Assembly: GCA_003138515.1 (NCBI GenBank)
Contig: PLGG01000056.1
Coordinates: forward strand, 5,608-69,607
Length of the DNA stretch: 64,000 nucleotides
Source: Acidobacteriaceae bacterium
GTDB lineage: Bacteria; Acidobacteriota; Terriglobia; Terriglobales; Acidobacteriaceae
Direction of reading: 5' to 3'
The translations under genes were made by a program, and so were the position numbers. Shown in pieces: positions 11,832 through 57,018 of this stretch (the stretch's first letter is position 1; each line of letters starts with the position of its first letter). The notes below the pieces were generated by a model that searched no databases, had not been told where the DNA came from, and saw only the letters and a list, made by a program, of their open reading frames with translations.

Positions 11832-11896
11832 CGCACGCTCATCGCCTTCGGCCTGATAAACTTCGGTGGGTAATCCACTCGGAGATATTCGCAACC

Positions 11897-12811
11897 ATGA
11901 ATCGCTTTGTTCCCATCCTCTTCCTGGCGGCATGTGCTTCTGCCGTATTCGCTCAAACCCCCGCCGCAACGCCCGCTGCCGGCTCAGCAACGCCCAAAAG
12001 CTCTTCTCCCGCGTCCACCGCCGCCAAGCCCGCCACCGCCAATTCGGCCGCAGCCGCTGCCCCCGCGCCCATGCCCTGGCTCAAGCTCCCTCCCGGCGTG
12101 CCCAGGGTGACTCACCTTCTGGTCAAGATGCCCTTCGCCCTGCGCTATGAAGACATCACCGTCGGCAAGGGTGCTGAAGGCGAGTCCGGCAAGCTCTGGC
12201 ACCTCAAGTACACCGGCTGGCGCGCCGCCGACGGCGTCAAGTTCGACTCATGGGACGATCATAAGCAGCCCGCAATTGGACCCGATGGCAAGCCCGAGCT
12301 CGGTTCCGATGGAAAACCCAAGATGGGCGATCCCGTCCCCATCGCAATCCCGCAAGGAATGGGCCGCGTAATCCCCGGCTTCGACTACGGCCTCGAAGGC
12401 ATGAAGATCGGTGGCAAGCGCCGCATCTTCATTCCCTGGCAAATGGCCTATGGTACGCGCGCCATGCCCGATCGGCCCGACCACCCCGGCATTCCCGCCA
12501 AGTCCGATCTCATCTTCGACGTCGAGCTGGTGGATGTGACCGAGATGCAGGCCCCGCATCCACCCATGATGCCCGGCAATCGTCCCGTGCCGCCTGGAGC
12601 TCCGCATCCCGGCGCAAGCGCCCCACCCAGTCCTGCTCCCGCTGCGCCTACGGCTCCATCTGCGGCCCCATCAACTCAACCGGCCGCGCCCGCCGCTTCT
12701 TCAACGCCATCAGCTCAGCCGGCTGCTCCGGCCGCAACCACTCCGCCCGCTTCGGCGCCCGCTCAACCGACCACGCCGCCGCCTTCCGGCGTCCAGGCCC
12801 AACCCAAATAA
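11897..12811 (+). CDS. Secreted FKBP-type peptidyl-prolyl isomerase with a Pro/Ala-rich C-terminal tail
   Basis: ATG at 11897 gives the signal peptide MNRFVPILFLAACASAVFAQ. The FKBP core is VIPGFDYGLEGMKIGGKRRIFIPWQMAYG...LIFDVELVDV. The last ~90 aa are PA-rich low complexity. Confidence 0.85.
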   Translation: MNRFVPILFLAACASAVFAQTPAATPAAGSATPKSSSPASTAAKPATANSAAAAAPAPMPWLKLPPGVPRVTHLLVKMPFALRYEDITVGKGAEGESGKLWHLKYTGWRAADGVKFDSWDDHKQPAIGPDGKPELGSDGKPKMGDPVPIAIPQGMGRVIPGFDYGLEGMKIGGKRRIFIPWQMAYGTRAMPDRPDHPGIPAKSDLIFDVELVDVTEMQAPHPPMMPGNRPVPPGAPHPGASAPPSPAPAAPTAPSAAPSTQPAAPAASSTPSAQPAAPAATTPPASAPAQPTTPPPSGVQAQPK

Positions 12812-12815
12812 ATCG

Positions 12816-12865
12816 GTTGCCCCATCCTTCGCCTTTTTCTGGCGAAGGGTGGGATCGCACGAACC
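12816..12865. repeat. REP-like hairpin element, copy A (likely bidirectional terminator between FKBP and amidase genes)
   Basis: GTTGCCCCATCCTTCGCC-TTTTTCT-GGCGAAGGGTGGGATCGCACGAACC has 12-13 bp arms. It is closely related to copy B at 24477..24527. Confidence 0.75.
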
Positions 12866-12868
12866 GCC

Positions 12869-14854
12869 TCAGTCCAGCTTCGGGTGCAGTTTCAGGAACC
12901 CGGTCGCTTCCTGGTAAGCGTGCGAAAAAGCCGCCAGCTTTGCGTCCTGGTAGAGCGCGCCGAGGAAAGTAATCGACACCGGCGTCCCCGGCCCGCCAAT
13001 ATTGTCGTGGTTCCCGTCGTCGACCGCGGGTGGCGCCGGCGCGTCAGCGCCGCGCAGACCATTTGGCAGAATCACAGCCGGATTGCCCGTCAAATTCGTC
13101 GCAATCAACTGCTCGTCGGTCGAGGGCGTCACGATCACATCCACTTTTTCAAACAGTTTCGCAAACTGGCGCACTCCAAGTGTCCGCGCGCGATTGGCCT
13201 GGATGTACTCAACCGCCGGATAAAACCGCGCGATGCGGAAGTCGTTCGGCCAATCCTCCGGCCCCTGTTCCGTCAGCAGCTTGTCGCGGCCGCTCATCGT
13301 CAGGTCGTCGAACGCCGCCGCGGCCTCTGCCGTCAGCAGCGGAACCATCGCGTCCCACGGCAGCTTCGGCAGCTCCACCGGAATCAGATTCACGCCCATC
13401 TTGGTCAGCTTGTCCAGCGCGACCTGCTCATATTTCTTGTCGTACGTGCGCCGCGTGTACTCGTCCTGCGCGGCCGCATTCGCATCTTCCCGCTTCTTCG
13501 TATCCTCCGGCGTCTCCCCAGCCACAGCCTCCTTCAGTTGCAGAGGCGGCAGTGGATCGAAATCGCTCTTGAAATACCCAACGCGCAACGATCGCCAATC
13601 GGCGTCCGGATTCCAGTGGAAGTCGATGCTCGCTCCGGCCGACAGATCTTTCCCATCGGGTCCGTGGATCACGTCGAGCACCAGCGCGCAATCCTCCACC
13701 GATCGGCAAATCGGCCCCAGCTTGTCCATCGTCCAGCTCAGCGCCATCGCTCCCGTGCGCGGCACCATGCCGAAGCTTGGCCTCAACCCCGAACAGCCGC
13801 ATCGCGTCGAAGGCGACGAAATCGACCCCAGCGTCTCCGACCCGATTGCAAATCCCACGCACCCCGCCGCCACTGCGCTCGCCGAGCCTGCCGACGATCC
13901 GCTCGATCCCAACGCGGGATTCCACGGATTCCGCGTCCTTCCTCCGAACCACTTGTCGCCCATCGCCAGCGCGCCCAGCGAAAACTTCGCCACCAGCACC
14001 GCCCCCGCGGCATCCAGCCGTTGCACCACGGTCGCGTCCTCGTTGAACGTCTGCTGCTCAAACCCTCCCGCGCCCCACGTCGTCGGATACCCTTTGACCG
14101 AAAGCAAATCCTTCGCGCCCCACGGAATCCCGTGCAGCGGCCCGCGATAAAGCCCGCTCTCCAGGTCCTCATCGGCCGCCTTAGCCTGGGCCATCGCCCG
14201 GTCTTTCAGCAGCGTGATCACGAAATGGAGTTGTGAGTCGTACCGCTTCAGGCGACCGATGTACATCTGGGTCAGTGCCACCGACGTAACCTTCCGGTGC
14301 CAGATCAAATTGGCCAGCTCGAGAACCGAGGCAAACGCCAGCTCCTCGAGATTCGCGGAAACTTTCGGCGCTGCCGATTCCGCGTCATCAAAAACCAGTT
14401 GCGGAGTGGTGCCTTGAAACACAACACTGCTCTCCGCCGGCTTCGCTGCCGGCCCCGGATGAAACGCGAACGCCGGCGGCACACTGTTCTCGATCTTCAG
14501 CGCGCGAATCTGTCCGTACGCATCGCGCTGATCGTTCAGCCCGTCGAGCATCATCTTCTTCTGCTCGTCGCTGAACGGCCCCACGCCCGCCAGTTCCGCT
14601 GCCCGGTCAATCATCTCGGTAGTAATCTTCGGTAACGCCGGCGCCTTGGCCTCATTGCTCGTATTCGCGCTCGCCGCGTGATTCGCCCCCGGACCCGAGG
14701 CTGGACCAGCCGCCGGGCTCGCCGCTGAGGGAGCCGTCTCCTGCGCCTGCGCGGCCAGCGTGTAAAGAATTCCCGGCAGCAGCGGAGAAGCAATCCCCGC
14801 GCTGGTGCACGCATTCAAAAAAGCTCGGCGGTTCAAGAACGGCGCTGGCTTCAT
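12869..14854 (-). CDS. Amidase-signature family enzyme, probable Tat-exported
   Basis: Internal ATG at 14854 gives MKPAPFLNRRAFLNA (twin-arginine motif). The amidase signature GSSGSSAGSASAVAAG is present, as is GAKDL. The longer ORF to 15055 would overlap the divergent ArsR gene. Confidence 0.85.
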   Translation of the reverse strand: MKPAPFLNRRAFLNACTSAGIASPLLPGILYTLAAQAQETAPSAASPAAGPASGPGANHAASANTSNEAKAPALPKITTEMIDRAAELAGVGPFSDEQKKMMLDGLNDQRDAYGQIRALKIENSVPPAFAFHPGPAAKPAESSVVFQGTTPQLVFDDAESAAPKVSANLEELAFASVLELANLIWHRKVTSVALTQMYIGRLKRYDSQLHFVITLLKDRAMAQAKAADEDLESGLYRGPLHGIPWGAKDLLSVKGYPTTWGAGGFEQQTFNEDATVVQRLDAAGAVLVAKFSLGALAMGDKWFGGRTRNPWNPALGSSGSSAGSASAVAAGCVGFAIGSETLGSISSPSTRCGCSGLRPSFGMVPRTGAMALSWTMDKLGPICRSVEDCALVLDVIHGPDGKDLSAGASIDFHWNPDADWRSLRVGYFKSDFDPLPPLQLKEAVAGETPEDTKKREDANAAAQDEYTRRTYDKKYEQVALDKLTKMGVNLIPVELPKLPWDAMVPLLTAEAAAAFDDLTMSGRDKLLTEQGPEDWPNDFRIARFYPAVEYIQANRARTLGVRQFAKLFEKVDVIVTPSTDEQLIATNLTGNPAVILPNGLRGADAPAPPAVDDGNHDNIGGPGTPVSITFLGALYQDAKLAAFSHAYQEATGFLKLHPKLD

Positions 14855-24991: not shown

Positions 24992-25030
24992 GCTTCACCG
25001 TAAGAAGTTCGCCGAACCACTAACCACTAA

Positions 25031-36330: not shown

Positions 36331-36408
36331 GTCCCCGTCGTCTAGCCCGGCCTAGGACACCGCCCTTTCACGGCGATAACACGGGTTCAAATCCCGTCGG
36401 GGACGCCA
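36331..36408 (+). tRNA. tRNA-Glu (anticodon UUC)
   Basis: Acceptor stem GTCCCCG/CGGGGAC, anticodon stem-loop CGCC-CTTTCAC-GGCG, T-arm GGGTTCAAATCCC and an encoded CCA. Confidence 0.9.
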
Positions 36409-36442
36409 ACAAATCTCCTGGGCTGGGGCACCTTCCCACACG

Positions 36443-36476: not shown

Positions 36477-36506
36477 GTTCATTTGCCGGGCTAATTGCTT
36501 GCGTGG

Positions 36507-36785
36507 CTATTTGCCGAAGACCTTTTTCGCTGCGGCTCCGGCAGCGGCGTCCTCGATGACCGGATGGATTTCCAACTCCAGAACGTCTGCCCATTCGGCG
36601 GCGTGCTCGGCGAGAGCCTCCGGTCCACTCGCTTCAATGAGGTGCCAGCCAAGCGTTGAGCCCGGAACGTGCCAGCGGCCGATTGTTTTGGCTCCTTCGG
36701 GCGCTGGGCCGCCCGATTTCAAGAATTGGTCAAGTGCAGTCTTGTATTTACCGGGGGTCGTCTTCCACACCACCATGAATTTCAT
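36507..36785 (-). CDS. DUF3303 family protein
   Basis: 92 aa. MKFMVVWKTTPGKYKTALDQFLKSGGPAPEGAKTIGRWHVPGS..GW.L.E......AEHAAEWAD.LELEI.PVIED matches my memory of DUF3303. Confidence 0.7.
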   Translation of the reverse strand: MKFMVVWKTTPGKYKTALDQFLKSGGPAPEGAKTIGRWHVPGSTLGWHLIEASGPEALAEHAAEWADVLELEIHPVIEDAAAGAAAKKVFGK

Positions 36786-36988
36786 GAATTCTCCTCCTCG
36801 GGGAATGTTTGCTCGGGGAAAGCTTGATGGTTGAGATTGCTTGACCCGTGAGGCTCGGCTTGGGCCAAGGAGAGCGGGCTTAAGGCTATACCGCTGGAGG
36901 GGGAAATAGTAAAGAGGATTCTTGGCGTGGTGGGAACCAGTGCTGGCAGATCTAGGACGGAGTGGTAGACCTGAAGGGCGGGGGCGTT

Positions 36989-38689: not shown

Positions 38690-38764
38690 CTTTGGCCTCT
38701 TCCGAGTGACCCTTTTGGCCTCTTTCCAGGTCGCCTAAGATCTTAACCTAACGAGCGTCGCCAT

Positions 38765-44976: not shown

Positions 44977-45044
44977 GCCGCGGGGCGAAGAGGCCTTGGG
45001 GACCCGGCGAAAGGCGGGCAACATGATTCGCATTTGAGTACGGC

Positions 45045-45668
45045 CTATGTCGGCGTTGGCCGTTCGTAGGACGAGATTAATTCGAAGTATCGATCTTTCA
45101 TCGTTTCGGCGTGTTCTGCTTCTCCGTAGGCCATGTAAAACAGGGTTCCAACTAGAAATAGGACATAGTCGGCGTAGTAGACGCACAGAAATGCGTCCTC
45201 TTCGAAGCAGGCTTCCTTTTTCCCAACCCGCTGGAATCGCCTAATGATGTGTATGGCTCCGGAGTGCGTGAAGTCATTCAGTATGGCCAGATCTGGCAGC
45301 TGTGTCTTGAATTCTGGAATTTTGCTATTCCGCACAAGGTCGGTAATAATGCGTGAAATATCTGGGAAGCTCCTCTGCGAAAAGCTGGTGATTCTCTTGA
45401 CGGCCTGATCGGACGCACAAGTGTCCATCCAAATGAGGCGGTAGCCTGTTTCGATGAGCGAGCGTAGCAGGGCCAGCGCGCTGCTGGCTAACCCAAACAT
45501 CAACAGGGCTCCGATGGCGCGATGATGTTCGAAGAGGGTGTCGAAAAGACCAGCCATATAAAAGTGCTTTGGATCTGGGCTCTTTAGCTTTAATTTGCCA
45601 CCCGCAGCAAGAATGCGAAAGGACGCGCTCTTTTGAATGTTCCTTTTGGGCCTGCCGTCCTTAAGCAT
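45045..45668 (-). CDS. Hypothetical all-helical protein in a low-GC insert
   Basis: 207-aa ORF between tyrS and the phosphohexomutase gene, with visibly lower G+C. I cannot assign a family with confidence. Confidence 0.5.
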   Translation of the reverse strand: MLKDGRPKRNIQKSASFRILAAGGKLKLKSPDPKHFYMAGLFDTLFEHHRAIGALLMFGLASSALALLRSLIETGYRLIWMDTCASDQAVKRITSFSQRSFPDISRIITDLVRNSKIPEFKTQLPDLAILNDFTHSGAIHIIRRFQRVGKKEACFEEDAFLCVYYADYVLFLVGTLFYMAYGEAEHAETMKDRYFELISSYERPTPT

Positions 45669-45794
45669 GGGTGAAGACTAAACGTTGGCAGTGACCCCCG
45701 CAAGGAATGGCTACTATTCCAGCGTGGATTTCGCCAGATTCAGGCAGGAATTCAAATAGATTACGTCAGGAAGTAGGTCTGCGCCGCCGTGGCC

Positions 45795-47246
45795 TCACAA
45801 GTTAAGCGCAAACGCGCGCGCGGAGTCGAGGAGTTTGGCGACGGATTCTTTCGAGCAGGATTCGGCATAGATGCGCAGGAGGGGCTCGGTGCCGCTGGCG
45901 CGCAGCAGCAGCCAGGTTTCGGCGGCCTTGGGCTTGGTGGTCGCTTCGGGGTTGTCGAGGAAGAACTTCACACCGTCGAGATCTTCCTGGCAGAAGATAG
46001 CCATGCCGGCGAAGACTGGGTTGCCGGGCTTGAGAGCGTGGGCGCGGGCGATGACGGCGTTCTTCTGGGCCTCGGGCAAATGAAGGTCGATGCGGCCGTA
46101 CTGGTGCTCGCCGTACTCGGCCTGCAAGTCGGCGACAAGCTGGCCGAGAGTCTTCTTTTCCTGGGCCATGACGTTGGCGAGCAGCAGGCAGTTGAGCAGG
46201 CCGTCGCGCTCGGGCAGGTGGCGCTGGAAGCCGATGCCGCCCGACTCCTCGCCGCCCATGACGATTTCGCGCTCCAGCATGAGGTCGACGACATACTTGA
46301 AGCCGATGCCGTGCTCGATGAGCTCGCGGCCATATTTCCTGGCGATGCGGTCGAGCATCTTTGTGGTGTTGAAGGCGCGAGTGACTGCGCCGGGCCAGCC
46401 TTTGTACTGCAAGACCCAGCTCAGCAGTGCGGAATAGATTTTGTGCGGGTCGACGAAGTTGCCGTGCTCGTCGATAGCGCCGATGCGGTCGGCGTCGCCG
46501 TCGGTGCAGAGGCCGGCCTGGCAGCCGTTGGCCACGACCGCTTCGCCGAGGGCGCGGATGTTGGGCTCGATGGGCTCGGGATTGATGCCGGGAAAGAGCG
46601 GGTCGGGGTTGGAGCGAATTTGCACGTGAGCCACGCCGATGCGAGCGAAGATGTCGGCGAGGATAGTGCCGCCCGCGCCGTACATGGAATCGATGCAGAA
46701 CTTCATGCCGGACTTCGAGATGAGATCGAGGTCGGCGAAGTCCTCTATGGATTTGAGGTAGGTGGGCAGGAAGTCGACTTCCGTAACGGGCGCGGGCTGA
46801 GAGGCGCGCGGGGCGGGTTTGCCGAGATACGACTCGATCGCCGTGATCATGGCGGGCTGGCCCGAGCCGCCGTACCAGCCCTTGTACTTGACCCCGTTCC
46901 ACTCCGCGGGGTTGTGCGAGGAGGTGATCATAATGCCGCCGGCTGCGCCGCGCTCGCGCACGCCCCAGCTGAGGGCCGGCGTGGGAGTGACTGCGGTCGC
47001 GAGCAGGACGGGAATGCCCGTGGCTGCGACGACTTCAGCGCATGCCTGGGCAAATGCCTTGGAGCCGAAGCGCGTGTCATAGCCGATGCAGAGACCCTTT
47101 GCGGGATCCTCCTGTGCGGAGCCTTTGCGGGAATGAATATAGGCGGCGATAGCCTCAGCGGCGATGCGGACGTTCGAGAAGGTGAAGTCGTCGGCGATGA
47201 CGCCGCGCCAGCCGTCGGTGCCGAATTTGATGACAGGTTGAGGCAT
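45795..47246 (-). CDS. Phosphoglucomutase/phosphomannomutase family protein
   Basis: ATG at 47246 gives MPQPVIKFGTDGWRG. Phosphoserine loop ITSSHNPAEWNG and Mg site DGDADR are present. Confidence 0.9.
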   Translation of the reverse strand: MPQPVIKFGTDGWRGVIADDFTFSNVRIAAEAIAAYIHSRKGSAQEDPAKGLCIGYDTRFGSKAFAQACAEVVAATGIPVLLATAVTPTPALSWGVRERGAAGGIMITSSHNPAEWNGVKYKGWYGGSGQPAMITAIESYLGKPAPRASQPAPVTEVDFLPTYLKSIEDFADLDLISKSGMKFCIDSMYGAGGTILADIFARIGVAHVQIRSNPDPLFPGINPEPIEPNIRALGEAVVANGCQAGLCTDGDADRIGAIDEHGNFVDPHKIYSALLSWVLQYKGWPGAVTRAFNTTKMLDRIARKYGRELIEHGIGFKYVVDLMLEREIVMGGEESGGIGFQRHLPERDGLLNCLLLANVMAQEKKTLGQLVADLQAEYGEHQYGRIDLHLPEAQKNAVIARAHALKPGNPVFAGMAIFCQEDLDGVKFFLDNPEATTKPKAAETWLLLRASGTEPLLRIYAESCSKESVAKLLDSARAFALNL

Positions 47247-47522
47247 CGTTGGTTTTCGGTGCAACTTGGGAAGCAAAGGAAAACAATAACAGGCGGAGCG
47301 GAGAGAGCGCACGGGGTTGGCCAAGGTTCGAGACTGGCTTAGAGAGAGGACGGCGAGCGGAAGGTCAGGAAACCGGCAAAGGCGCAGACGGCGCAGGGAT
47401 TGAAAACAAGCGGCGGGAAGTGAACGGGCGCGAGGGCTAGAATAGGGGCCAACCGTTGGTAGAGCAGAGACGGTTCTTTTCTCGCCGGCCCAAGAATTTG
47501 GTCAGAAGATTCGCTCGAGGAT

Positions 47523-50500
47523 TTGCCCATGTCGATTCTCAGCAGAACGGCAGGCGTTGCATTGCTGGCGGCGGCAACAGCCACGGCGGCGTGCGCGCAG
47601 CAAGTCAAGGCACAAAGCGGCGGAGTTCAGCGCGGCATCCAGCCGGAGAGCAGCGATGAGCCGGCGGTGAAGAACGGCCACCAGTACATCGTGGCGATCG
47701 GCATCGATCACTACGAGAACTGGCCGATTCTGAGCACGGCGGTGAGCGACGCATCGGAATTCGCCAAGCTGCTGACGAGCAAATTCGGATTTGAATATGC
47801 AGCGGAGCCGCTGACGGAAAAGAACGCCACGCGCGAGGCGATTATTTCGTTGCTTGAAGACGACCTGCCAACGCGGTTGAAACCTGAAGACTCGCTGGTG
47901 ATCTTCTTCGCCGGCCATGGAACCACGCACCCCTACAAGGTGGGCGATGAGGCGCGATCCGATGGATTCATTGTTCCGGTGGACGCGCGCGCGCCGGGCG
48001 CGAACGAGCACTGGAGCGACTACCTGAAGATCGAGGAGTTGTTGCACACGATCGACTCCCTGCCCGCGTCTCATATTCTTGTCATCCTGGACAGTTGCCA
48101 CAGCGGCATGGCGCTGGGGAACAAGTTCATGACGAGCCGCGCCGATACGCGTTTCGAGCGGGACATGCTGGTGAAGGTGAGCCGCAAGGTGATCGCCAGC
48201 GCGCAGGGCGACCAGCTTGCCTCCGACAGCGGCCCGCTGCCGAATCACTCGCTGTTTACGGGGCTGATGATTCAGGGACTGACGAACGGGAATGCGGACA
48301 GCTATGGGGAGGGATTTGTTACATCGAGCCAACTGGGCGCTTTTGCGCAGCACCAAGTCGCGGTTGCGGCGGGCTCGAAGCAGACTCCGCTGTTTGGCGC
48401 CTTCGACGATGACCAGGGAGGCGAATTGGTGATCCATATGGGCTCTGGAGCCCAACCGGCCGCGGCGGACGGAGCGAACCCGGCGACGACTTTTACGAAA
48501 TACGAAGCGCTGGAGCTGGATCGGCTGAAGAAGGACGGGAACCGCTATTGGCAAAATGACGATCCGCTGAAGAATTTTCCTGCGGCGCGAAGTGTGGCGC
48601 TCAAACTGTGCGACGCGGGCGACGACAGCGTCAAATACTGGGGATGCGAACAGGCCGCGCGGAGTTTCCGCAGCGGGCTTGGCGGAGGCACCGACTACGC
48701 GCAAGCGGCGAGCCTGGCGCAGCACGCCTGCGACGGCAAAGATACCGACGCGTGCGTTCTGCTGGCGTCGCTCTACCAAACGGGAGAGAGCATCGAGCCC
48801 GATCTCGAAAGCGCGGTGAGACTCTTCCAGGATTCATGCAACAAAGGGAACCTGCGCGGCTGCTTTGGCCTGGGCAGGCTCTACATGGATGGCCACGGAG
48901 TCGCCAAGGATTACGCGCAGGCGAAGACGCTGTTCACCAAGGTGTGCGACGGCGGCGAGATGACAGGCTGCAATGGCCTGGGCGCGCTCTATAGCTTCGG
49001 CGATGGAGTGACCCGGGATTACGCGCAAGCGATGAGCTACTGGCAGAAGGCCTGCGACGGCGGCATTGGGAGGGCCTGCGAAAACATTGGCCAGTTGTAC
49101 TGGTTTGGAAAAAGCGTCAGCAAGGACCCGGTGCAGGCAGCGAACTTTTACCGCAAAGGCTGCTCGGGCGGCGAAATGGAAAGCTGCGCAGAGCTGGGAT
49201 GGATGTACGAAAACGGACAGGGCGTGAGCAAGGATCAGCCGCAGGCGCTGACGCTCTACAAGCAATCCTGCGACGGCGAATCGGCGACAGGTTGCAACGA
49301 GCTGGGCAACCATTACCAGCTTGGCGACGGGTTGACCAAGGACCTGGCGCTGGCGGCAGTGAATTTTCGCAAGGCCTGCGACGCCAGCGCGGGCATTTGG
49401 GGTTGCAACAACCTGGGTTTGCTGTACGAGCGGGGCCAGGGAGTGGGTCAGGATGTGACCGAGGCACTGCGCCTGTACCGCAAGGCGTGCGATGCCGGCC
49501 AGATGATTGCCTGCACCAACGCGGGAAACATGTATGTGAATGGGCGCGGCACGTCGAAGGACGAGGGAGAAGCGGTACACATGTTCCGCACTTCGTGTGA
49601 TGGAAACTACCTGGCCGGTTGCGTGCAGCTTGGATACATGCTTGCGTTTGGACAGGGCGCGACGAAAAATGAGCCCCAGGCGATCGGGCTTTTCCGCAAG
49701 GCATGCGACGGCGGCGATACGAGGGGTTGCCTTGGACTTGGCGCCATGTTTGAGAGCGGCCAGGGCGTGGCCAAGGACGAATCGCAAGCGGCGAAGTTGT
49801 ATGGCAAGGCCTGCGACGCAGGCAACTTTGCAGGCTGCACCGATCTGGGCAACCTGACCGTGAGCGGCCGCGGTGTGGCCAAGGACGAGGCGGCGGGATT
49901 CGCGCTCTACAAGAAAGGCTGCGATGGCGGCGATATGAACGGCTGCGTGAACTACGCGCTGGCCTATGAATCGGGCCAGGGCGTGGCTAAGGATGAAGCG
50001 CAGGCCGCGCAACTGTTCCAGAAGAACTGCGACGCAGGCGACCTGCGGAGCTGCACGCAGCTCGGCTATTTGTATTACAACGGGATCGGCGTGGCCAAGG
50101 ACCAGACGAAGGTGTTTCAACTGACGCAGAAGTCCTGCGATGGCGGCGTGATGCTGGCCTGCTCCAATTTGGCCGCTACGTACTACTTGGCTGTGGGAAT
50201 CGCAAAGGATGAACCCAAGGCCATGACGCTGGATCGCCAGGCTTGTGATGGCGGCGAACCGAGAGGCTGCGCGGGCATCGCCGCTTTTGGTTTCATGGAT
50301 CAAGAGGGATTCGATTCGGCAAAGGATTACGGTGGCCAGTTGACCAACTATCACAAGGCCTGCGACAGCGGTGACATGAAGGGCTGCGCAGCCCTGGCTT
50401 TCATGGTGCGCAATGCCCTGGGAACAACGAGGGACCTTGGCGCCGCCAATTACCTGGCGCTGAAAGCTTGTGACGGCGGCGTGATGGTCTCCTGCGTGGG

Positions 50501-50843
50501 GTACGGCGCAATCCTGTACGCCGGCGACGGCGTGAAGCAGGACTTGGCGCAGGCGCTGAGCTTCGAGCATAAGGCGTGCGACGGCGGCGCGATGGCGGGC
50601 TGCGTCTACGTTGGATTCTTCTACCAAAATGGCATTGGCGCGCCGATCGACGCCGTGCAAGCCGGTGATTTCTACCGCAAAGCCTGCGACGGCGGCGAGC
50701 CGACGGGCTGCCGCGTTGTAGGCTGGCTTTACCGGAACGGCCTGGGCGTAGCGCTGGATGAAATGACGGCGCTCAGTTTCTATCACAAGGCCTGTGAAGC
50801 CGGCGATCAGACGTCGTGCTCGGAGTTGAAGGCAAATCCGTAA
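47523..50843 (+). CDS. Secreted caspase-family (peptidase C14, orthocaspase) domain fused to about 20 Sel1 repeats
   Basis: Signal peptide MPMSILSRTAGVALLAAATATAACAQ. C14 catalytic dyad contexts are IFFAGHG (H132, 47916..47918) and ILDSCHSG (C192, 48096..48098). From about aa 330 to the end come uninterrupted 36-aa Sel1 units (A..(L/F)(Y/F).KAC(D/S)GG...(G/A)C..LG.(L/M)Y..G.GV.KD...). Confidence 0.85.
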   Translation: MPMSILSRTAGVALLAAATATAACAQQVKAQSGGVQRGIQPESSDEPAVKNGHQYIVAIGIDHYENWPILSTAVSDASEFAKLLTSKFGFEYAAEPLTEKNATREAIISLLEDDLPTRLKPEDSLVIFFAGHGTTHPYKVGDEARSDGFIVPVDARAPGANEHWSDYLKIEELLHTIDSLPASHILVILDSCHSGMALGNKFMTSRADTRFERDMLVKVSRKVIASAQGDQLASDSGPLPNHSLFTGLMIQGLTNGNADSYGEGFVTSSQLGAFAQHQVAVAAGSKQTPLFGAFDDDQGGELVIHMGSGAQPAAADGANPATTFTKYEALELDRLKKDGNRYWQNDDPLKNFPAARSVALKLCDAGDDSVKYWGCEQAARSFRSGLGGGTDYAQAASLAQHACDGKDTDACVLLASLYQTGESIEPDLESAVRLFQDSCNKGNLRGCFGLGRLYMDGHGVAKDYAQAKTLFTKVCDGGEMTGCNGLGALYSFGDGVTRDYAQAMSYWQKACDGGIGRACENIGQLYWFGKSVSKDPVQAANFYRKGCSGGEMESCAELGWMYENGQGVSKDQPQALTLYKQSCDGESATGCNELGNHYQLGDGLTKDLALAAVNFRKACDASAGIWGCNNLGLLYERGQGVGQDVTEALRLYRKACDAGQMIACTNAGNMYVNGRGTSKDEGEAVHMFRTSCDGNYLAGCVQLGYMLAFGQGATKNEPQAIGLFRKACDGGDTRGCLGLGAMFESGQGVAKDESQAAKLYGKACDAGNFAGCTDLGNLTVSGRGVAKDEAAGFALYKKGCDGGDMNGCVNYALAYESGQGVAKDEAQAAQLFQKNCDAGDLRSCTQLGYLYYNGIGVAKDQTKVFQLTQKSCDGGVMLACSNLAATYYLAVGIAKDEPKAMTLDRQACDGGEPRGCAGIAAFGFMDQEGFDSAKDYGGQLTNYHKACDSGDMKGCAALAFMVRNALGTTRDLGAANYLALKACDGGVMVSCVGYGAILYAGDGVKQDLAQALSFEHKACDGGAMAGCVYVGFFYQNGIGAPIDAVQAGDFYRKACDGGEPTGCRVVGWLYRNGLGVALDEMTALSFYHKACEAGDQTSCSELKANP

Positions 50844-50845
50844 AC

Positions 50846-50876
50846 CAGTGAACAGCGAACAGTGGACAGCGAGCGG
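50846..50876. repeat. Heptad tract (CAGYGRA)x4 immediately after the caspase-Sel1 stop codon
   Basis: CAGTGAA CAGCGAA CAGTGGA CAGCGAG. Confidence 0.7.
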
Positions 50877-50969
50877 CAACGGTCCCGTGATGCAGGCCAG
50901 ACGCGCAGCAGTGTAAACTAGCAGAGACCCCAGAAGCCGGTTCGCCAAGGCGGGCCGGCTGCGTTATGT

Positions 50970-51046
50970 CGGGACGTGGCTCAGCCTGGTAGAGCACTCG
51001 CTTGGGGTGCGAGGGGTCGGCAGTTCAAATCTGCCCGTCCCGACCA
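50970..51046 (+). tRNA. tRNA-Pro (anticodon GGG)
   Basis: Acceptor stem CGGGACG/CGTCCCG, anticodon stem-loop CTCGC-TTGGGGT-GCGAG, T-arm GGCAGTTCAAATCTGCC, discriminator A and an encoded CCA. Confidence 0.9.
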
Positions 51047-51163
51047 TTTAACCGCTAAGTCTCCTCGTGCGGCATCGCGAAAGCAGGACAGAACTGCCGA
51101 TCCGCGAAGCGACTGCGCACTGAATCTGGTTTGTGAGGAGCGCAAGGCGAAGCCGAGCGTGTG

Positions 51164-51192
51164 CGGCAGTTCACATCTGCCCGTCCCGACCA
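51164..51192 (+). repeat. Direct copy of the 3' 29 nt of tRNA-Pro (att-like scar)
   Basis: CGGCAGTTCACATCTGCCCGTCCCGACCA matches tRNA positions 51018..51046 (CGGCAGTTCAAATCTGCCCGTCCCGACCA) at 28/29 positions, 146 nt downstream. Confidence 0.85.
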
Positions 51193-51383
51193 ATTCTTAG
51201 AATCAATAACTTACAGAATTTATCTCCGTAATTTGGACCCTAGAGTGAGTACTCGAGCCCCGTGCGGATTTTCGGCCTCCATATTCAAATGCGGAGGAAC
51301 GCAACAATGGGAGCTCCGATATAGCGCATAACACTTCAGTCTCAGGTCCAGAATCACCCAAATCGTGTACACTTTGCGTGACC

Positions 51384-52202
51384 ATGCAGTTCAAGAAAGC
51401 ACCGCTCATTGAACTTGTCGCCGAGTTCCGGTGGGTGCCCGACACCGCAGTTCCCTTGTTCGCACCACCCAACGCCCCGGGCCAGGTTGCCACTCCACTC
51501 CCGTTGGTTGACCCAGGGCGCTATGAGTCATTTTTCTCGAATTTCTCGAGGGCAATCGCCGAACGCGGTTATGCGAGAACCGAGCGATTGATTCCTGCCG
51601 GGTGGCCGTTTCCCTTCCAACTGCCCGTATTGAGGTTCAGGCACTCTGACTTCGAGAAGAGCCAGAGTACCCTGTACCAACTTGGTGCGGGCATTTTCTC
51701 GGCTCATGCTATTCCGCCGTATCGCAATTGGGAATCGTTTAAGCCTGTAATCAACGACGGGCTCGAAGTCCTGATGGGCAACATGCTGCCGGATGAGCAT
51801 GTTTCGAGGTTCACAACAGTCGTGTTGCGATACATCGATCGATTCACCGCCGAGTTTTCGGAGGGCATGCCCTCTCGGGATTTTATTGAGCAGATATTTC
51901 GCATCCGCCTGGACCTCCCCGCCGTGCTTCGCGATGAGGCTGTTGATGAGCGGATTATTGACCAAACGCTCTTGCTCCGCATCCCACTTAAGTCTGGGTT
52001 GTTGATGACCCTGGGGATCAACCCGCCGACCCAGCCGCCTGGAGGTGGAATCGTGCTCGACACTGCGGTCGGTTCTCAAGAATCCGTGGCGTTCGATGTT
52101 CGCGCTGCAGTGGAAATGCTCGAGGCTGCTCATACGTCCATACGGCACGTTTTCACCAGCCTTACTGAGCCAATTTACGCAAAGATGGAGCCGCAGCCAT
52201 GA
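51384..52202 (+). CDS. TIGR04255-like uncharacterised protein
   Basis: MQFKKAPLIELVAEFRW resembles the characteristic TIGR04255 N-terminus (..aPL.E...E.RF). About 272 aa and low G+C. The assignment is from memory of the family and is unverified. Confidence 0.6.
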   Translation: MQFKKAPLIELVAEFRWVPDTAVPLFAPPNAPGQVATPLPLVDPGRYESFFSNFSRAIAERGYARTERLIPAGWPFPFQLPVLRFRHSDFEKSQSTLYQLGAGIFSAHAIPPYRNWESFKPVINDGLEVLMGNMLPDEHVSRFTTVVLRYIDRFTAEFSEGMPSRDFIEQIFRIRLDLPAVLRDEAVDERIIDQTLLLRIPLKSGLLMTLGINPPTQPPGGGIVLDTAVGSQESVAFDVRAAVEMLEAAHTSIRHVFTSLTEPIYAKMEPQP

Positions 52203-52759
52203 TAGTTCCGCCCTATTTGGTTGATCGCCCTACGCTTGAACTGGTCGAGACGATGCCTGCTCAACCACCTATTGGGATGTTGTGGATTAACACGGTAAGA
52301 GGTCTTGTGCCGACAGTCGCGCCCGTTCGTAGTTTCCGAAATGAAATGGTTACCAAATCCAATCGGTTCGCAAACCTCGGCCCCGGCTGGCTCGGGCCAA
52401 ACAGCTGCGAGATTCCGAGGACCACGTCAGCACGAATTTTGGAGCTTGCCGTGTCTCTTGAGCAGATCGAAGGGTTGCCCAATCCAGAGATGACTCCAAA
52501 TATTCACGGGACTATCTCTCTGGAATGGGAGAGCGCCAGAGGCGAGGCATACTTGGAATATGGCACCAACGAAATAAGCGGCTTTGTGCGCTTCGAGAAC
52601 GAGCCCATTGAGCACATCGAAGCAGTTGCTACGCTGCCGGTCTCTTTTTTCACGCTTGTGCGGGACCGGCTCTTTCCCATCTCGCAGGCGCACTCAGTCA
52701 CAACTGAAGGGTTGGGTCCCTATAGCTATGCTTTTGCGACGACTCGGGCGTTGGCTTAG
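52199..52759 (+). CDS. Hypothetical protein, translationally coupled to the upstream gene
   Basis: The ATGA start/stop overlap lies at 52199..52202. 186 aa with no motif I recognise. Confidence 0.6.
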   Translation: MIVPPYLVDRPTLELVETMPAQPPIGMLWINTVRGLVPTVAPVRSFRNEMVTKSNRFANLGPGWLGPNSCEIPRTTSARILELAVSLEQIEGLPNPEMTPNIHGTISLEWESARGEAYLEYGTNEISGFVRFENEPIEHIEAVATLPVSFFTLVRDRLFPISQAHSVTTEGLGPYSYAFATTRALA

Positions 52760-53261
52760 AGGGCTTTTCTGCTTTTCTTTGCCGGTTAAGGTGTCAGATT
52801 CGGAGAACCTGATACGAGGCATCTACTACGAGGTGCACCTCGACGATGTCGGCTCCCTGAAGTGGCAAGCGTATGACCCAACGCCCGGCACAGATGAAGT
52901 CTCGGTCATGCGGTCTGCGCGTCTTTCGCCAAATGCGTGCAAGCGAAAAGCAAAGTCTATCGAGAGAGCTCCGAGGAAGCTTTATCGTGGGCTGGCCGCC
53001 CTAAGTTCTGGTGCGATTAAAACAGCTGGGATGGCGGTCGTCGATTCTCGGCACGTCGATTGCGGCCACGCAGACATCAAGACGGGTGTGGTCACGCAAA
53101 GGAGACTTCCGAACGTCCCGCGCGACCCGCGCGAAGTGGCGCGTGTGAAAAAAGTGGCCGAGAAACTTATAGAACTGTCGCAGTACTATCCAGATTCAAG
53201 GATCGAAAGCGCGAAGTGGGAGGGTGAAGGTTTACTAGCCCCGCTCCGTAAAGACATCTAG
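52728..53261 (+). CDS. Hypothetical protein, third gene of the islet operon
   Basis: This frame is open from 52584. The first ATG, at 52728, overlaps the previous gene by 32 nt. Alternative starts are TTG at 52779 and GTG at 52791. No motif I recognise. Confidence 0.5.
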   Translation: MLLRRLGRWLRGLFCFSLPVKVSDSENLIRGIYYEVHLDDVGSLKWQAYDPTPGTDEVSVMRSARLSPNACKRKAKSIERAPRKLYRGLAALSSGAIKTAGMAVVDSRHVDCGHADIKTGVVTQRRLPNVPRDPREVARVKKVAEKLIELSQYYPDSRIESAKWEGEGLLAPLRKDI

Positions 53262-53569
53262 TCGCGAGGGTTTTCCAAGCCATGCAGCCTGTTGACTCCG
53301 CCACCAACGTGACTTTTGTCATGTACCCAAAAGCAGATTCTTCGCGCATTGTGGAGAGACAAGGCAAAGAACCCAACATGGGCCTCTGACCGGCCGCTTG
53401 TGATCCGCCGCTCGTAATCTGGATTGATCGGCTCATACGCCACCAATGGATTTGGAAGCGGAACATTTCCCCCCGGGGCTGCGTCTCCTCGAATTGTCTT
53501 GAGAGCCACTGCTGCGGAAGACTCGCGGCGAGCGGCGAAGAAATCGGATCATCGAGGGAAAGGCGGCGC

Positions 53570-55461
53570 ATGTACTCCCCCTACTCGCGTCAAGCATTGC
53601 AATCAGGCGTCCACAAGCACAAAGAACTCTGGATCGTAGCCTGCGCACTCGTTCTTCTACCGGCCTTCATCGGGTTGGCGGGTTGCACGAAGCCGCTCCC
53701 AATCACCAAAGAAGTTGCCGCGCCGACGATCGGCACCTTTTCCGCGAGCCCTATGTCCATCATCGCGGGCTCAAGCACCACGCTGAATTGGGCGACTACA
53801 GGAGCGACGGGCATCGCCGTCACGCCGGGGACCTTTGCATCCACATCGGCGAGCGGGTCGGTGGTTCTGAGCCCGACGGCGACGACCACGTACACGCTGA
53901 CGGCGACGAATAGCACCGGCACAGCGGCGTCGATATTGACTGTGACGGTGACCCAGCCAACCCTGCCCACGATCAGCTCGTTCACGGCGAGCCCAACGAG
54001 CATTACCCTGGGCGGGATCAGCACGCTGAGTTGGACAACTTCAGGCGCGACGACGCTCAATATTGCGCCGGGGAACCTCGCGTCGACCTCGGCGAGCGGC
54101 ACAGTGAATGTGAGCCCCGAGACGACAACCACTTACGTTCTGACAGCGACCAATGCGGCGGGATCGGTGACGGCTTCTGCGAAGGTGGCTCTGACATCGA
54201 CGGGTGGGCCGTTAAATATCACCACTACAAGCTGCGCCGGAGGAACGCAGAACACGGCGTATGCGGGCTGCACGATTGCCGCGACCGGCGGGGCTCCACC
54301 ATACAGTTTTTCTGTCGACGACAGCGGCAGCTATCCTCCGCTGCCGGAGGGAATGTCGATGGACGCATCGACGGGTGAGATAACCAGCCCGCTGATCGGC
54401 GGCCAGGGAACGTACATTCCCGAGATTGTGGTGACGGATGCGACGTCCGCAACAGCGAAGGCGCAGATCAATTTCGCCATCAACGGCAGCAATGCGTTTC
54501 TCAAGAACGTCTTTACGGCGGCTTCAATCTTTCACCATCGCGTGGACGCAGCGACGACCAACCTGCCCGTGGATACGTCGCCCGCGGCGCCGATATACAG
54601 CGGCTATTTGCCTGCGACGGTCAAGCCATTCTTCGGCAACAACTCGAATGCTCCGTTCCCGAATGGGATTCCGGCGATCGAGGTGCCGTATAACCAGCCC
54701 GATGTTTCGGTGGCGACGACGGTCTACCAGTCGTACTTTGCTTCGGGTCCGATTCCGGCTTACGCGCCGGTTGAGGGCACTAGTAACTCGTCGGGAGACC
54801 GGCACGTGCTGGTGTACCTGGAGCCAGGCAACGGAAAGAATCCGGCGCTCTATGAAATGTGGCAGGGAGTTTACCTGGACGGCCCGTGGACCGACTCTTC
54901 GAACGCGGAGTGGCCCAATGTGGCGACGGATGCGCTGACGCCACAGGGGCAGGGGACGTCAGATGCCGCGGGCTTGCCGGTGGCGCCCCTGCTGGCGAAT
55001 GCGGATGAGGTAATTGGAACTGGCACCCCGAGCGGGCCGAACGGCACGGCACAGCATCCGATTCGATTCACGCTGAATCATATGTTGAACTACTGGGTGT
55101 GGCCTGCCACGCAAACGGCGGGAACGGGAAGCTGCAAAGACAGTTCCGGCGCTGCAATTTCCACGGAGTCAGAGATTTCGCAGGCGGCGCCGCCGGCGAA
55201 ATTTATCGGCTGAAGGCTTCCGTGACCACGCCGGCTTGCGCGGCCACAAGTCCGCAGGCGGCCATCATTATTACCGGGTTCCGGAATTACGGAATCATTC
55301 TGGCCGACAACGGCGACAGCGGCGGATTGATCGGCACACCCGACGCGCGCTGGAACGACGCCGATCTCTCGTGCCTGACGAGCCTTATTCTGTCGGACTT
55401 TGAGCCGGTGAATGTGTCGAGCCTGATGGTGACCAACGGCAGCGGTGCGACCAGCCACTAG
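53570..55461 (+). pseudogene. Surface lipoprotein with Ig-like repeats, split by a frameshift near 55190..55200
   Basis: ORF 53570..55213 has a lipobox (FIGLAGC) and two ~85-aa repeats (I..F.ASP.SI..G.S..L.W.T.GAT...I.PG...S.SASG.V.V.P..TTTY.LTA.N..G). ORF 55099..55461, in the -1 frame, carries what reads as the same protein's C-terminus (GEIYRLKAS...SPQAAIIITGFRNYGIILADNGDSGGLIGTPDARWNDADL...SDFEPV). Confidence 0.55.
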
Positions 55462-55498
55462 GGCGCACGAACCGCCGTGCATTCTCGTGTTGGGGGAA

Positions 55499-55771
55499 TT
55501 AGTGCGCTGGGGGAACGAAGTCGGCGGGCAGGGCTGAGCCGGAGCCGAAGAAAAAGTCCTCCATCTGTTCGACGAGGAACTGCTGCGCCTGCGGCAGCCA
55601 GGGCTGGAGACGGTACTCGTTCAACAACATCTTCTGGCGGCCTAGCCACTCGTCCCACGCCGCTTTCGAGACATTCTTATAGATCTTCTGGCCAAACTCC
55701 GAGTCGAAGGGCGGCTCGTCGAGGCCTTCCATTTCCTTCTTGTAGCGAACGCAAAAAACCATGTGCGCCAT
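55499..55771 (-). CDS. yggX: Fe(2+)-trafficking / oxidative-damage protection protein YggX
   Basis: From M27 of the listed ORF: MAHMVFCVRYKKEMEGLDEPPF...G.KIY.NVSK.AW.EWL..Q.ML.NE.RL is the YggX pattern. The protein is 90 aa. Confidence 0.8.
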   Translation of the reverse strand: MAHMVFCVRYKKEMEGLDEPPFDSEFGQKIYKNVSKAAWDEWLGRQKMLLNEYRLQPWLPQAQQFLVEQMEDFFFGSGSALPADFVPPAH

Positions 55772-56002
55772 GCAAATTGCTCCCAGATGCCATTGTAATT
55801 GGATTACCCGGAGAATCTCGGCTTGCTGCGGTTGGCCTCCGTTGCCCACGACCGGCGTTCAAGTTTCGCGCGGAGCATCGCTGCCTGAGCAAATCTGACC
55901 AGACCGGATCTCTCGCTTCGGACCACAATGATTAGTGACGCTTGATCTACTTCCCGGAAGCGGCAATCTCAGAACGAGCAGCCCGATCAAAAAGGAGCTT
56001 CC

Positions 56003-56374
56003 ATGTCCGATGTGAATGTGTCTGGCGCCAATGTATCTGGCCTCTCCGACAACGCCGCCGGTGGTCTTTCCTACATCACGATCATCCCGGCCATTGTTTT
56101 CCTGATCGTTGAGCCCTACAAGAAAAGCGCCTTTGTACGCTTTAACGCCTGGCAGTCGATCTTCTTTTATGTTGCCTGGGCCGTAGTGCATATTCTGGTC
56201 GAGATCGCGCAGAATCTAGTTCCGACGGTCCTCTTCCTCACCATGTCCTTGTGGCAATTTGTGGATCTGGCTTTCTTTGTCGTGCTCGTGATCGTGTTCA
56301 TAAGCGCTTTCAACGGCAAGCGCTTTATGCTGCCCATCATTGGCGGACTGGCAGAGAGGCAAGCTAACCGGTAG
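56003..56374 (+). CDS. DUF4870-like small membrane protein
   Basis: GLSDNAAGGLSYITIIPAIVFLIVEPYKKSAFVRFNAWQSIFF is followed by hydrophobic helices. It is paralogous to 56668..57018. Confidence 0.7.
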   Translation: MSDVNVSGANVSGLSDNAAGGLSYITIIPAIVFLIVEPYKKSAFVRFNAWQSIFFYVAWAVVHILVEIAQNLVPTVLFLTMSLWQFVDLAFFVVLVIVFISAFNGKRFMLPIIGGLAERQANR

Positions 56375-56397
56375 CCGGCCCCCAACGGCACCTGGTG

Positions 56398-56429
56398 CAG
56401 GAACGGCCTCCGCAAGGAGGCCGTTCCTG
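56398..56429 (+). terminator. Hairpin terminator after the first DUF4870 gene
   Basis: CAGGAACGGCCTCC-GCAA-GGAGGCCGTTCCTG is a perfect 14-bp stem. The downstream tract is TGTGTGTG, not a clean U-run. Confidence 0.6.
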
Positions 56430-56667
56430 TGTGTGCCAACTACCCATCCCGCCCCGGCCTGTTCCACCCAGCCCTCCTCGCATGCGGACCAGGCCCGCGC
56501 CCTCGCGCGGAAATTCTCTTGACAAGGGGCCGGGCGGCAGGTTGTTCTATCTCCACCCCAATTGACGGTCCGCGGCCGCATAGGCTGAACCCCCGGTGCC
56601 CGGGCCGTGCGTAGAAGTGAGTCAATCCCCGTCCCCTTCAACCGTCTTTCTTGAAAGGAGAGTTGCT

Positions 56668-57018
56668 ATGGCCGACGAACCCAACACTGCAGCAGCCAAC
56701 TCAGGACTATCGGACAATGCCGCGGGGGCAATCGCCTACATCACGATCATCCCGGCGATCATTTTTCTGATTGTGGAACCGTACAACAAGAATTCGTTTG
56801 TTCGCTTTCACTCGTGGCAATCCATCTTTCTTGGCATTGCCGCCTTCGCTATTCAAATCGTGCTCTCTGTGATCCCGGTGGTTGGATGGATCATCATCCC
56901 ATTCTTCCTGATCGGTTTCCTGATCGTCTGGATCATGTGCCTGGTCAAGGCGTCAAAGGGAGAACGGTGGAAGCTGCCACTGATCGGCGACTTTGCCGAG
57001 AAACAGGCAAACGCCTAG
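56668..57018 (+). CDS. DUF4870-like small membrane protein (paralog)
   Basis: ATG at 56668 is preceded by AAAGGAGAG. GLSDNAAGAIAYITIIPAIIFLIVEPYNKNSFVRFHSWQSIFL. Confidence 0.75.
   Translation: MADEPNTAAANSGLSDNAAGAIAYITIIPAIIFLIVEPYNKNSFVRFHSWQSIFLGIAAFAIQIVLSVIPVVGWIIIPFFLIGFLIVWIMCLVKASKGERWKLPLIGDFAEKQANA

Follow-up and report, generated by a model that had tools for sequence, protein, structure and literature searches.

A stretch of 64,000 nt from an Acidobacteriaceae bacterium (contig PLGG01000056.1), in the following called the window, contains three co-oriented open reading frames (ORFs) at positions 51384..53261, which raise the question of whether they represent a functional genetic system and, if so, of what kind. 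The original prediction had described these genes, designated g1, g2 and g3 here, as a tightly coupled operon of lower G+C content than the surrounding chromosome, and had proposed them as an accessory system in a defence, toxin-immunity or other conflict context. The coupling and the difference in G+C content are both borne out by the data given below, and the functional proposal survives in a tentative form: the genes may best be interpreted as a three-component conflict module that has not been described before, of the toxin-antitoxin (TA) or abortive-infection type and frequently transported by prophages, an assignment to which we attach a probability of about 0.45.

Conservation of the Gene Triad

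Related loci (62 metagenomic, 3 genomic, and 4 distinct viral ones, plus loci obtained from protein look-ups) were fetched and given L-numbers, and the six-frame ORFs of these loci were scored with hidden Markov models (HMMs) of g1, g2, and g3. Loci were counted if they had a strong g3 match (E < 1e-40) and an upstream sequence of 1500 nt or more. The order and strand of g1-g2-g3 are kept in 43 of 43 qualifying loci, among which about 37 distinct g3 sequences are represented, so that the co-occurrence as a conserved triad, which had been suggested as a check, is evident from this sample. The narrow HMMs recovered 42 of the 43 loci. A broader g2 HMM added the last one (L058) and likewise detected the g2 gene of L048, which the narrow version had missed. 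The called gene boundaries either overlap by 1-32 nt or leave a gap of at most 13 nt, and the pairwise identities of the three proteins correlate with each other (r = 0.75-0.82, 40 loci). As calculated against a relative with 84-91% identity, the ratios of nonsynonymous to synonymous substitution rates (dN/dS) are 0.117 for g1, 0.168 for g2, and 0.190 for g3. As judged from these sequence comparisons, g1, g2, and g3 are real genes under purifying selection which are passed on as one inherited unit.

The distribution of the single families was assessed by word-indexed searches of 5.8 billion proteins and by an exhaustive profile search of 1.84 billion representatives. The word-indexed searches yielded 22 close clusters for g3, 5 for g2, and 12 for the g1 subfamily, often located on the same short contigs, and the profile search extended the g3 family to at least 690 clusters at 50% identity (476 at E <= 1e-10), nearly all members of which are single-domain proteins of 140-200 aa. 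An apparent fusion of g2 and g3 (P0134) looks like a chimera and was discounted.

The possibility that the three genes are merely chance open frames or decaying pseudogenes without a function has to be considered, because spurious ORFs are numerous in DNA of high G+C content, and frameshifts or truncations occur in the relatives L003, L006, and L009. This alternative is essentially excluded because of the conservation of the triad and the dN/dS values of 0.12-0.19, which also speak against the pseudogenised fragments that had been named beforehand as a refuting outcome. It is further opposed by the existence of hundreds of homologues in which motifs and gene order are kept and by confident AlphaFold2 (AF2) models, and the insertions of L003 are partly located in homopolymers of a contig that may derive from long reads.

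Compared with the window, the affected locus (L003, 6731..8683) contains five short insertions (1-2 nt each), which break g1 and g2, and its g3 frame stays open. Several of these insertions lie in homopolymer runs, where assembly errors of long reads and true decay are indistinguishable. An attempt to use decayed copies as a pointer to the toxic gene of the set was abandoned, since the changes in L003 are all insertions and may be assembly errors.

Gene Boundaries

The start of g1 is placed at the ATG at 51384, because its homologues begin with MQFK or MKFK. The start codon of g2 overlaps the TGA stop codon of g1 in the sequence ATGA at 52199..52202, as is directly read from the DNA and as had been noted originally. 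The g3 frame is open over positions 52584..53261, and its junction with g2 is either an overlap or an abutment, depending on the start chosen. Its most likely start, as far as sequence comparisons indicate, is the ATG at 52728, which yields a protein of 177 aa and a 32-nt overlap with g2, consistent with the overlap of the two frames recognized earlier. This codon was picked by independent gene calls in the relatives L076 and L078, and the N-terminal amphipathic helix encoded from it onward is kept in relatives of 50-60% identity; the alternative starts are TTG 52779, which corresponds to the database call of 160 aa, and GTG 52791. Searches of the region for non-coding RNA families matched the tRNA alone, no sigma-70-like promoter was found there, and terminator-like matches were not meaningfully above expectation.

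Mobility and Genomic Contexts

The G+C content of the cassette is compared in Table 1 and here with that of its surroundings: its value lies below the window mean of 0.605 (standard deviation 0.028 for windows of the same size), within the lowest 5.5%, and the G+C content at third codon positions is 0.59-0.64 in the cassette vs. 0.73-0.77 in the flanking genes. The composition of the cassette is thus foreign to its flanks. When positions 47000..57000 of the window were compared with all loci by blastn, the only stretch in common with L003 proved to be the cassette listed in Table 1, with 84.7% nucleotide identity, reaching from 42 nt before the g1 start to 26 nt past the g3 stop. The cassette follows a tRNA-Arg(TCT) gene in L003 and a tRNA-Pro gene in the window, and the flanks differ. 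Since the cassette alone is common to these two loci, next to different tRNA genes, it is the bare cassette that moves.

In four loci, the triad begins 180-340 nt behind a tRNA gene of the same orientation, a different one in each case, and most loci have no tRNA gene beside it. No integrase is located between the tRNA gene and the triad in L001, L003, L022, or the window, and the sequences following the triad in L001, L003, and L022 showed no repeat derived from a tRNA gene.

The position of the window copy behind a repeat resembling an attachment (att) site at tRNA-Pro was described correctly by the original prediction, and the repeat does not bound an islet. The repeat is a copy of the 3' end of the tRNA gene, a 17-mer of which would be expected to show 0.21 matches by chance. 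The two copies enclose merely 114 gene-free nucleotides (51050..51163), therefore the triad, located past the second of them, does not lie within the pair; a third copy was not found in the window, and no integrase ORF was seen between positions 51,200 and 53,570. A tRNA-linked integrative island bounded by the att-like repeat was therefore ruled out, the triad being located outside of the 114-nt repeat pair and having no integrase. The segment at 51050..51163 itself looks like a scar, either from a lost integrative element or from a second integration event.

The hosts of the triad include Acidobacteriaceae, Rhodoferax, an uncultured proteobacterium, and Paraburkholderia strydomiana, and it also occurs on four viral contigs of IMG/VR. 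Among the viral loci, L074/L082 are inovirus-like, with genes for a secretin, a G2P-type Rep protein, and an integrase and with a Gp49/HigB-like gene directly upstream of the triad, and L075/L080 contain Mu-like baseplate genes upstream of it. The triad lies close to the contig end in L079 and L081, which are IMG/VR contigs of about 41 kb, and an ORF of L081 has a C-terminus matching tail proteins of Burkholderiales phages. In Paraburkholderia (L001), the triad is located between tRNA-Arg and phage tail genes at the end of a prophage.

A divergent version is encoded in a P22-like prophage that resides on a megaplasmid (634 kb) of Pantoea sp. Lij88 (NZ_CP118267; L011, 5992..7840), where a TIGR04255 gene and genes for proteins of 189 and 149 aa are placed between the holin/lysozyme/DUF2570 lysis genes and that of the small terminase subunit. 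Its g1 product is found with the broad g1 HMM at E 2.4e-81, and g2 and g3 are barely detectable, the best matches of the respective HMMs in this locus being the positionally equivalent ORFs (E 2e-3 and 0.07). The motifs GWDG, E..GR, SVTR, and H-A-E-I are kept, and because of these motifs and the HMM matches in the corresponding positions, the Pantoea genes are regarded as a distant version of the triad. The Pantoea g3-like protein has no other matches, and the Pantoea triad has none in E. coli genomes.

Other mobile or conflict-related genes within 4 kb of the triad code for a resolvase (L010), an rve integrase (L003), a TIR protein (L002), HipA, insertion sequence elements, and an integrase fragment (L009), or Phd-PIN and XRE-type proteins (L007). 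Altogether, the cassette is horizontally mobile, frequently found in the context of mobile elements, and often carried as prophage cargo. The 150 neighbouring ORFs analysed in 22 loci matched 145 different Pfam families, mostly of housekeeping type and with two integrase ORFs among them, and PADLOC reported only generic matches for these neighbours, namely a UvrD/GajB-like helicase, a PD-T4-6-matching kinase, and a methyltransferase.

The TIGR04255 gene set of L002 has a further possible operon in its vicinity: starting 2.8 kb downstream of the triad, the TIR protein (367 aa) is followed by genes for proteins of 247 and 140 aa without Pfam matches (11351..13721), which may constitute a separate defence-like operon.

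The occurrence in phage-related loci also suggests a phage-serving "moron", i.e., a counter-defence, host-takeover, or lysogenic-conversion module from which the prophage benefits instead of the cell being defended, in accordance with at least six instances in accessory slots of predicted prophages. Such a role appears rather improbable, since most copies, including those of the window and of the near-identical strain L078, reside in chromosomal regions without nearby phage genes, none was detected by tblastn in 50,697 sequenced phage genomes, and counter-defence is usually conferred by single small genes. Searches of annotated phage and plasmid records by tblastn gave nothing for g2 and g3, and only the Pantoea prophage copy for g1.

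A further alternative is a pure addiction module of the TA type, which would stabilise carrier elements or sites without any antiviral role. TA systems comprise a toxin that arrests growth and a cognate antitoxin that neutralises it, usually a DNA-binding autoregulator. The architecture would fit, with its tight coupling, basic g3, and acidic g2 products, as would the integrases, resolvases, and other TA genes adjoining the cassette in several loci and the absence of an enrichment in defence islands. An assignment of this kind is nevertheless unlikely, although it deserves to be kept in mind: three genes exceed a minimal TA pair, no DNA-binding antitoxin domain is recognisable, and the slots occupied in prophages (between lysis and terminase genes, or at the prophage end at att) are those in which exclusion or defence genes are more commonly found. 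Moreover, no plasmid copies are present in PLSDB beyond the prophage on the Pantoea megaplasmid.

The TIGR04255 Protein g1

The product of g1 had been described as resembling the uncharacterised TIGR04255 family, and it indeed matches the NCBIfam model over practically its full length, with 67.9 bits at a cut-off of 30 (E 1.2e-18; residues 2-268 corresponding to positions 1-251 of 252). The cut-off is also passed by the g1 products of L001, L002, L004, L005, and Pantoea, and no match of g1 was obtained to PDB sequences, Pfam, or PHROGs.

The AF2 model of g1 (predicted local distance difference test score, pLDDT, 80.5; predicted TM-score, pTM, 0.80) shows the element order beta-alpha-beta4-alpha followed by beta-alpha(s)-beta3-alpha (E-H-E-E-E-E-H, E-H..-E-E-E-H). 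The best match in Foldseek is a prozyme of S-adenosylmethionine decarboxylase (AdoMetDC; 6bm7_F, E 7.7e-5, probability 0.99), followed by archaeal TBPs (1mp9, 2z8u; probability 0.66-0.77), and by aspartokinase ACT-type regulatory domains, YwmB, and Bet v1-type proteins; RnlA is matched weakly (probability 0.18). The global TM-scores are low (0.2-0.35), therefore the likeness should be regarded as one at the level of the fold only. At this level, g1 is predicted to adopt a duplicated beta-alpha-beta4-alpha fold of the TBP/AdoMetDC-like type.

The residues conserved among 45 homologues of g1 are mostly hydrophobic or aromatic, together with E67-R68 and with Y113, W116, and Y150, a pattern unlike that of an enzyme active site and without an obvious catalytic set, as far as can be read from the alignment. 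AdoMetDC enzymes process themselves at a Glu-Ser site to create a pyruvoyl cofactor and contain an active-site Cys and His. An assignment of g1 as an AdoMetDC enzyme was rejected, since it lacks an invariant Ser/Cys/His set, has E67-R68 as conserved pair, and shows no match to PDB sequences. Based on the model, g1 may rather represent a duplicated TBP-like protein with a binding or scaffold function.

The Acidic Protein g2

The protein encoded by g2 has a variable N-terminal third and a conserved core with the pattern GW.G ... P.P...P..GTI.LEWE...GEAYLE.G. The original prediction had stated that g2 and g3 match nothing nameable, and this holds for both proteins with respect to Pfam, NCBIfam, PHROGs, and PDB sequences; it does not hold for the core of g2 in PADLOC, which partly matches PDC-M32A (model positions ~262-343 of 375, E 1.4e-5). 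The same partial match was obtained with all 8 g2 homologues tested, with a best E value of 6.5e-9. When a g2 homologue was used as query in a permissive search, no usable PDC-M32A-like protein of phages turned up.

The Candidate Effector g3

No match was found for g3 in Pfam, NCBIfam, PHROGs, PADLOC, or the PDB sequences and profiles, and a Pfam scan of 112 diverse members of its family likewise gave nothing. The AF2 model is compact and confident (pLDDT 90, pTM 0.83) and contains predicted strands at residues 27-34, 57-62, 84-93, 103-106, 114-118, and 152-155 with interleaved helices. The 112 members share four invariant residues (S59, R62, G88, and H114), and seven others show almost no variation (E26, R30, H37, C71, G113, D156, and W164). 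The subfamily linked to the triad conserves D56, K72, D106, S107, and R108 as well, each to at least 95%. The polar residues E26, R30, D56, K72, D106, S107, R108, and D156 reach at least 90% in one or both of the alignments. The isoelectric point (pI) of g3 is 9.5-9.8, compared to a median of 7.9 in the family. Taking the invariant Ser, Arg, Gly, and His residues together with the conserved polar positions and the compact model, g3 looks like an enzyme.

Foldseek comparisons of g3 with the PDB and BFVD gave no significant match. Among the weak ones are Tpt1/KptA (6e3a, probability 0.23, TM 0.28; two viral Tpt1 models, TM 0.30-0.31), DarT (7omv), ExoA, PARP10, and AvrPphF, as well as three HIT proteins. 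ADP-ribosyltransferases (ARTs) use NAD+ and have a split-sheet fold with a catalytic H-Y-E or R-S-E triad on strands 1, 2, and 5, and in the model of g3, R30 is found on predicted strand 1, S59 and R62 on strand 2, and H114-A-[D/E/H]116 on strand 5. These are the positions of the R-S-E triad, which provides a lead for g3, and its weak structural matches lean toward the ART/Tpt1 fold.

Two further assignments of g3 were considered and set aside. HEPN RNases are all-alpha bundles with an Rx4-6H motif, and an assignment of g3 to them would have been compatible with R108-x5-H114, which spans the loop between strands 4 and 5; this was rejected because the motif lies in the beta-rich part of an alpha/beta model, and no HEPN match to g3 was found in Pfam, PDB, or Foldseek. 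A protease of either the Ser-His-Asp (S59/H114/D156) or the Cys-His type has no counterpart among the Foldseek matches, which contain no protease fold, and C71 of the Cys-His variant is located at a helix N-terminus and is not invariant.

The fold similarities of g1 and g3 may be taken to indicate an accessory function in nucleotide, RNA, or small-molecule metabolism or in repair, in which an AdoMetDC/TBP-like subunit and a Tpt1/HIT/ART-like protein act without any role in conflict. This would be consistent with the AdoMetDC prozyme as best structural match of g1 (E 7.7e-5), with the RNA 2'-phosphotransferase and HIT hydrolases among the weak matches of g3, and with the mostly housekeeping neighbours and the frequent location of the cassette beside tRNA genes. 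We consider it improbable in view of the patchy distribution, the different context at nearly every locus, the foreign composition, and the carriage by prophages; g1 also lacks the processing serine of AdoMetDC, with conserved residues that are mostly hydrophobic apart from E67-R68, and a conserved partner gene of metabolic function was not encountered.

The Proposed Conflict Module

For the preferred assignment as a tripartite conflict module, the following division of labour can be envisaged, in line with the charge pattern of a basic g3 and an acidic g2 protein. The effector would be g3, as a basic enzyme of small size whose substrate contains phosphate, such as RNA, a nucleotide, or NAD+. 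The acidic, translationally coupled, and co-evolving g2 would serve as its partner, either keeping g3 inactive or tying it to g1, and g1 would be the sensor or scaffold that binds nucleic acid or an invader-derived ligand and then releases or activates g3. These roles, like any antiviral or addiction effect, we infer from the architecture and context of the genes, as is also the case for a function in defence, TA, or conflict in general.

Several observations weigh against this assignment. An enrichment near known defence genes, which had been suggested as a further check, was not visible among the 150 neighbouring ORFs in 22 loci, which are mostly of housekeeping type. None of the validated models of toxins, antitoxins, or defence proteins was matched, the PADLOC v2 run on the three proteins giving only the partial PDC-M32A match of g2, and no DNA-binding domain of an antitoxin type (helix-turn-helix or ribbon-helix-helix) was detected in g1, g2, or g3. 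All fold matches of g3 are non-significant (probability at most 0.23, TM at most 0.31) and include HIT-family proteins, and its position 116 is not invariant, being occupied by D, E, or H. Finally, no pattern of orphan or decayed genes can be read safely as pointing to a toxic gene, since the frameshifts of L003 may be long-read errors. The conflict context proposed originally is partly upheld, with regard to the conserved triad, its purifying selection and foreign composition, the mobility of the cassette, its carriage by prophages, the integrase, resolvase, and TA genes in its neighbourhood, and the domain shared by g2 and PDC-M32A; it has no counterpart in a match to a validated family.

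A bolder version of the same idea would regard triads led by TIGR04255 proteins as a widespread, often prophage-borne anti-phage system of the abortive-infection type, in which the effector is a new and highly divergent ART-like enzyme (R-S-H/D) or has a wholly new fold, and a free-standing TBP-like sensor acts via a small adaptor sharing the PDC-M32 domain. This extension appears doubtful at present, even if it is conceivable.

Comparison With Known Systems

Judging from the sequence searches, the only named relatives of the triad are the orphan family TIGR04255 and, by a partial match, the candidate PDC-M32A. The module is new in the sense that none of its components has a characterised homologue, which does not imply a new mechanism. 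A full-length member of TIGR04255 is represented by g1, and this family has no assigned function; its description contains neither a fixed partnership with g2 and g3 nor a predicted TBP/AdoMetDC-like fold, and the papers searched contain no mention of it. The PDC systems are candidates nominated for their embedding in BREX, DISARM, or type I restriction-modification loci, and PDC-M32 is a two-gene candidate, with PDC-M32A (about 375 aa) and PDC-M32B encoded next to each other, without a protein description in the respective supplementary tables (Payne et al., bioRxiv 10.1101/2024.01.29.577857). The part shared with g2 comprises about 80 of 375 model positions, g2 has half the length of PDC-M32A, and g1 and g3 do not give any PADLOC match (E <= 1), which argues against membership of the triad in PDC-M32.

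The CmdTAC system consists of a toxin, an antitoxin, and a chaperone, and its toxin, an mRNA ADP-ribosyltransferase, is released once its partner senses a capsid protein (PMC11618068). By analogy, the triad may be compared to CmdTAC and other toxin-antitoxin-chaperone systems in having three small, presumably co-transcribed genes, one coding for a putative and possibly ART-like effector and two for non-catalytic partners, one of them a candidate for the sensing of infection. It differs in showing no PADLOC match to PD-T4-9/CmdTAC, in lacking a SecB-like chaperone, and in the gene order; moreover, its candidate sensor is a TBP-like TIGR04255 protein, and g3 is only putatively an ART. With regard to known ADP-ribosyltransferases (Tpt1/KptA, DarT, and toxins of the R-S-E type), the model of g3 may suggest a similar arrangement, with R30, S59, and H114-x-[D/E/H]116 on strands 1, 2, and 5, whereas a significant structural match, a match to sequence profiles, and an invariant catalytic Glu are missing.

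TBP-like accessory domains are known from defence nucleases, such as RnlA (PMC8266594) and prokaryotic Schlafens (PMC13056530). The predicted structure of g1 shares with RnlA-RnlB and other TBP-bearing nucleases the order beta-alpha-beta4-alpha, present twice, of TBP-like domains. The domain is fused to a nuclease in RnlA and the Schlafens, whereas it forms a separate protein of 272 aa here, and no HEPN domain is present. CmdTAC, RnlA, and the Schlafens may thus be used as functional precedents by analogy, none of them being homologous to the proteins of the triad.

Should the module function as proposed, it would provide the first role for the orphan NCBIfam family TIGR04255, establish two protein families that have no entry in Pfam, PHROGs, PADLOC, or the PDB, and add a three-gene set of less than 2 kb to the catalogue of mobile conflict and immune systems, including a confidently modelled small enzyme without a significant structural neighbour and a stand-alone TBP-like sensor. 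Its sources are mainly Acidobacteria from soil and peat and Burkholderiales, which are under-sampled by screens for defence systems. The small size of the cassette makes it easily testable, and many candidates of this kind exist.

Features of the Locus and Its Flanks

Table 1. Positions of the triad genes, the shared cassette, and associated tRNA features (window coordinates, except for the loci L001, L003, and L022).
Feature	Position	Strand	Description
g1	51384..52202	+	272 aa; open frame 51378/51384..52202; TIGR04255-family protein; pI 5.5
g2	52199..52759	+	186 aa; acidic, pI 5.0; variable N-terminal third and conserved core
g3	52728..53261	+	177 aa; basic, pI 9.5-9.8; predicted single-domain alpha/beta protein; putative effector enzyme
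Shared cassette (mobile unit)	51342..53287	+	1.95 kb; blastn match to L003; G+C 0.552
tRNA-Pro (anticodon GGG)	50970..51046	+	ARAGORN; Rfam tRNA 62.9 bits; upstream of cassette
Direct repeat of tRNA-Pro 3' end	51164..51195	+	32 nt, 30/32 identical to reference copy 51018..51049
Stretch from tRNA gene to triad start, L001	6380..6666		Arg-CCG
Stretch from tRNA gene to triad start, L003	6448..6773		Arg-TCT
Stretch from tRNA gene to triad start, L022	4310..4583		Ser-CGA
Stretch from tRNA gene to triad start, window	50970..51384		Pro-GGG

The flanks of the triad in the window are ordinary chromosome, with genes for a caspase and Sel1 protein before the tRNA gene and those of a 547-aa protein and YggX downstream. 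The first of these (47523..50843, +) codes for a protein of 1106 aa with an N-terminal caspase domain (Peptidase_C14) and a long array of Sel1 repeats (Sel1 E 4.6e-93). A gap of 127 nt separates the end of this gene from tRNA-Pro, and the near-identical strain L078 has it as well. The 547-aa protein (53570..55213, +) has an N-terminus resembling a signal peptide or lipoprotein and contains repeated modules of the type 'TTTYTLTATN' without a Pfam match. Two tandem paralogous genes for small membrane proteins follow at 56003..56374 and 56596..57018 (both +), the products of which share the pattern LSDNAAG..YITIIPAI.FLIVEPY.K..FVRF..WQSIF, the first one with a weak TIC20-like match.

Regions with a G+C content as low as that of the cassette occur elsewhere in the window, at ~400-3000, ~25000-27800, and ~36100-39500, the last of which begins at a tRNA-Glu gene (36331..36408). 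Another patch, at 45000..45750, has a G+C content of 0.52 and carries a DUF6988/DUF5677 gene at 45045..45668 (-). These low-G+C patches may represent further small acquired islets.

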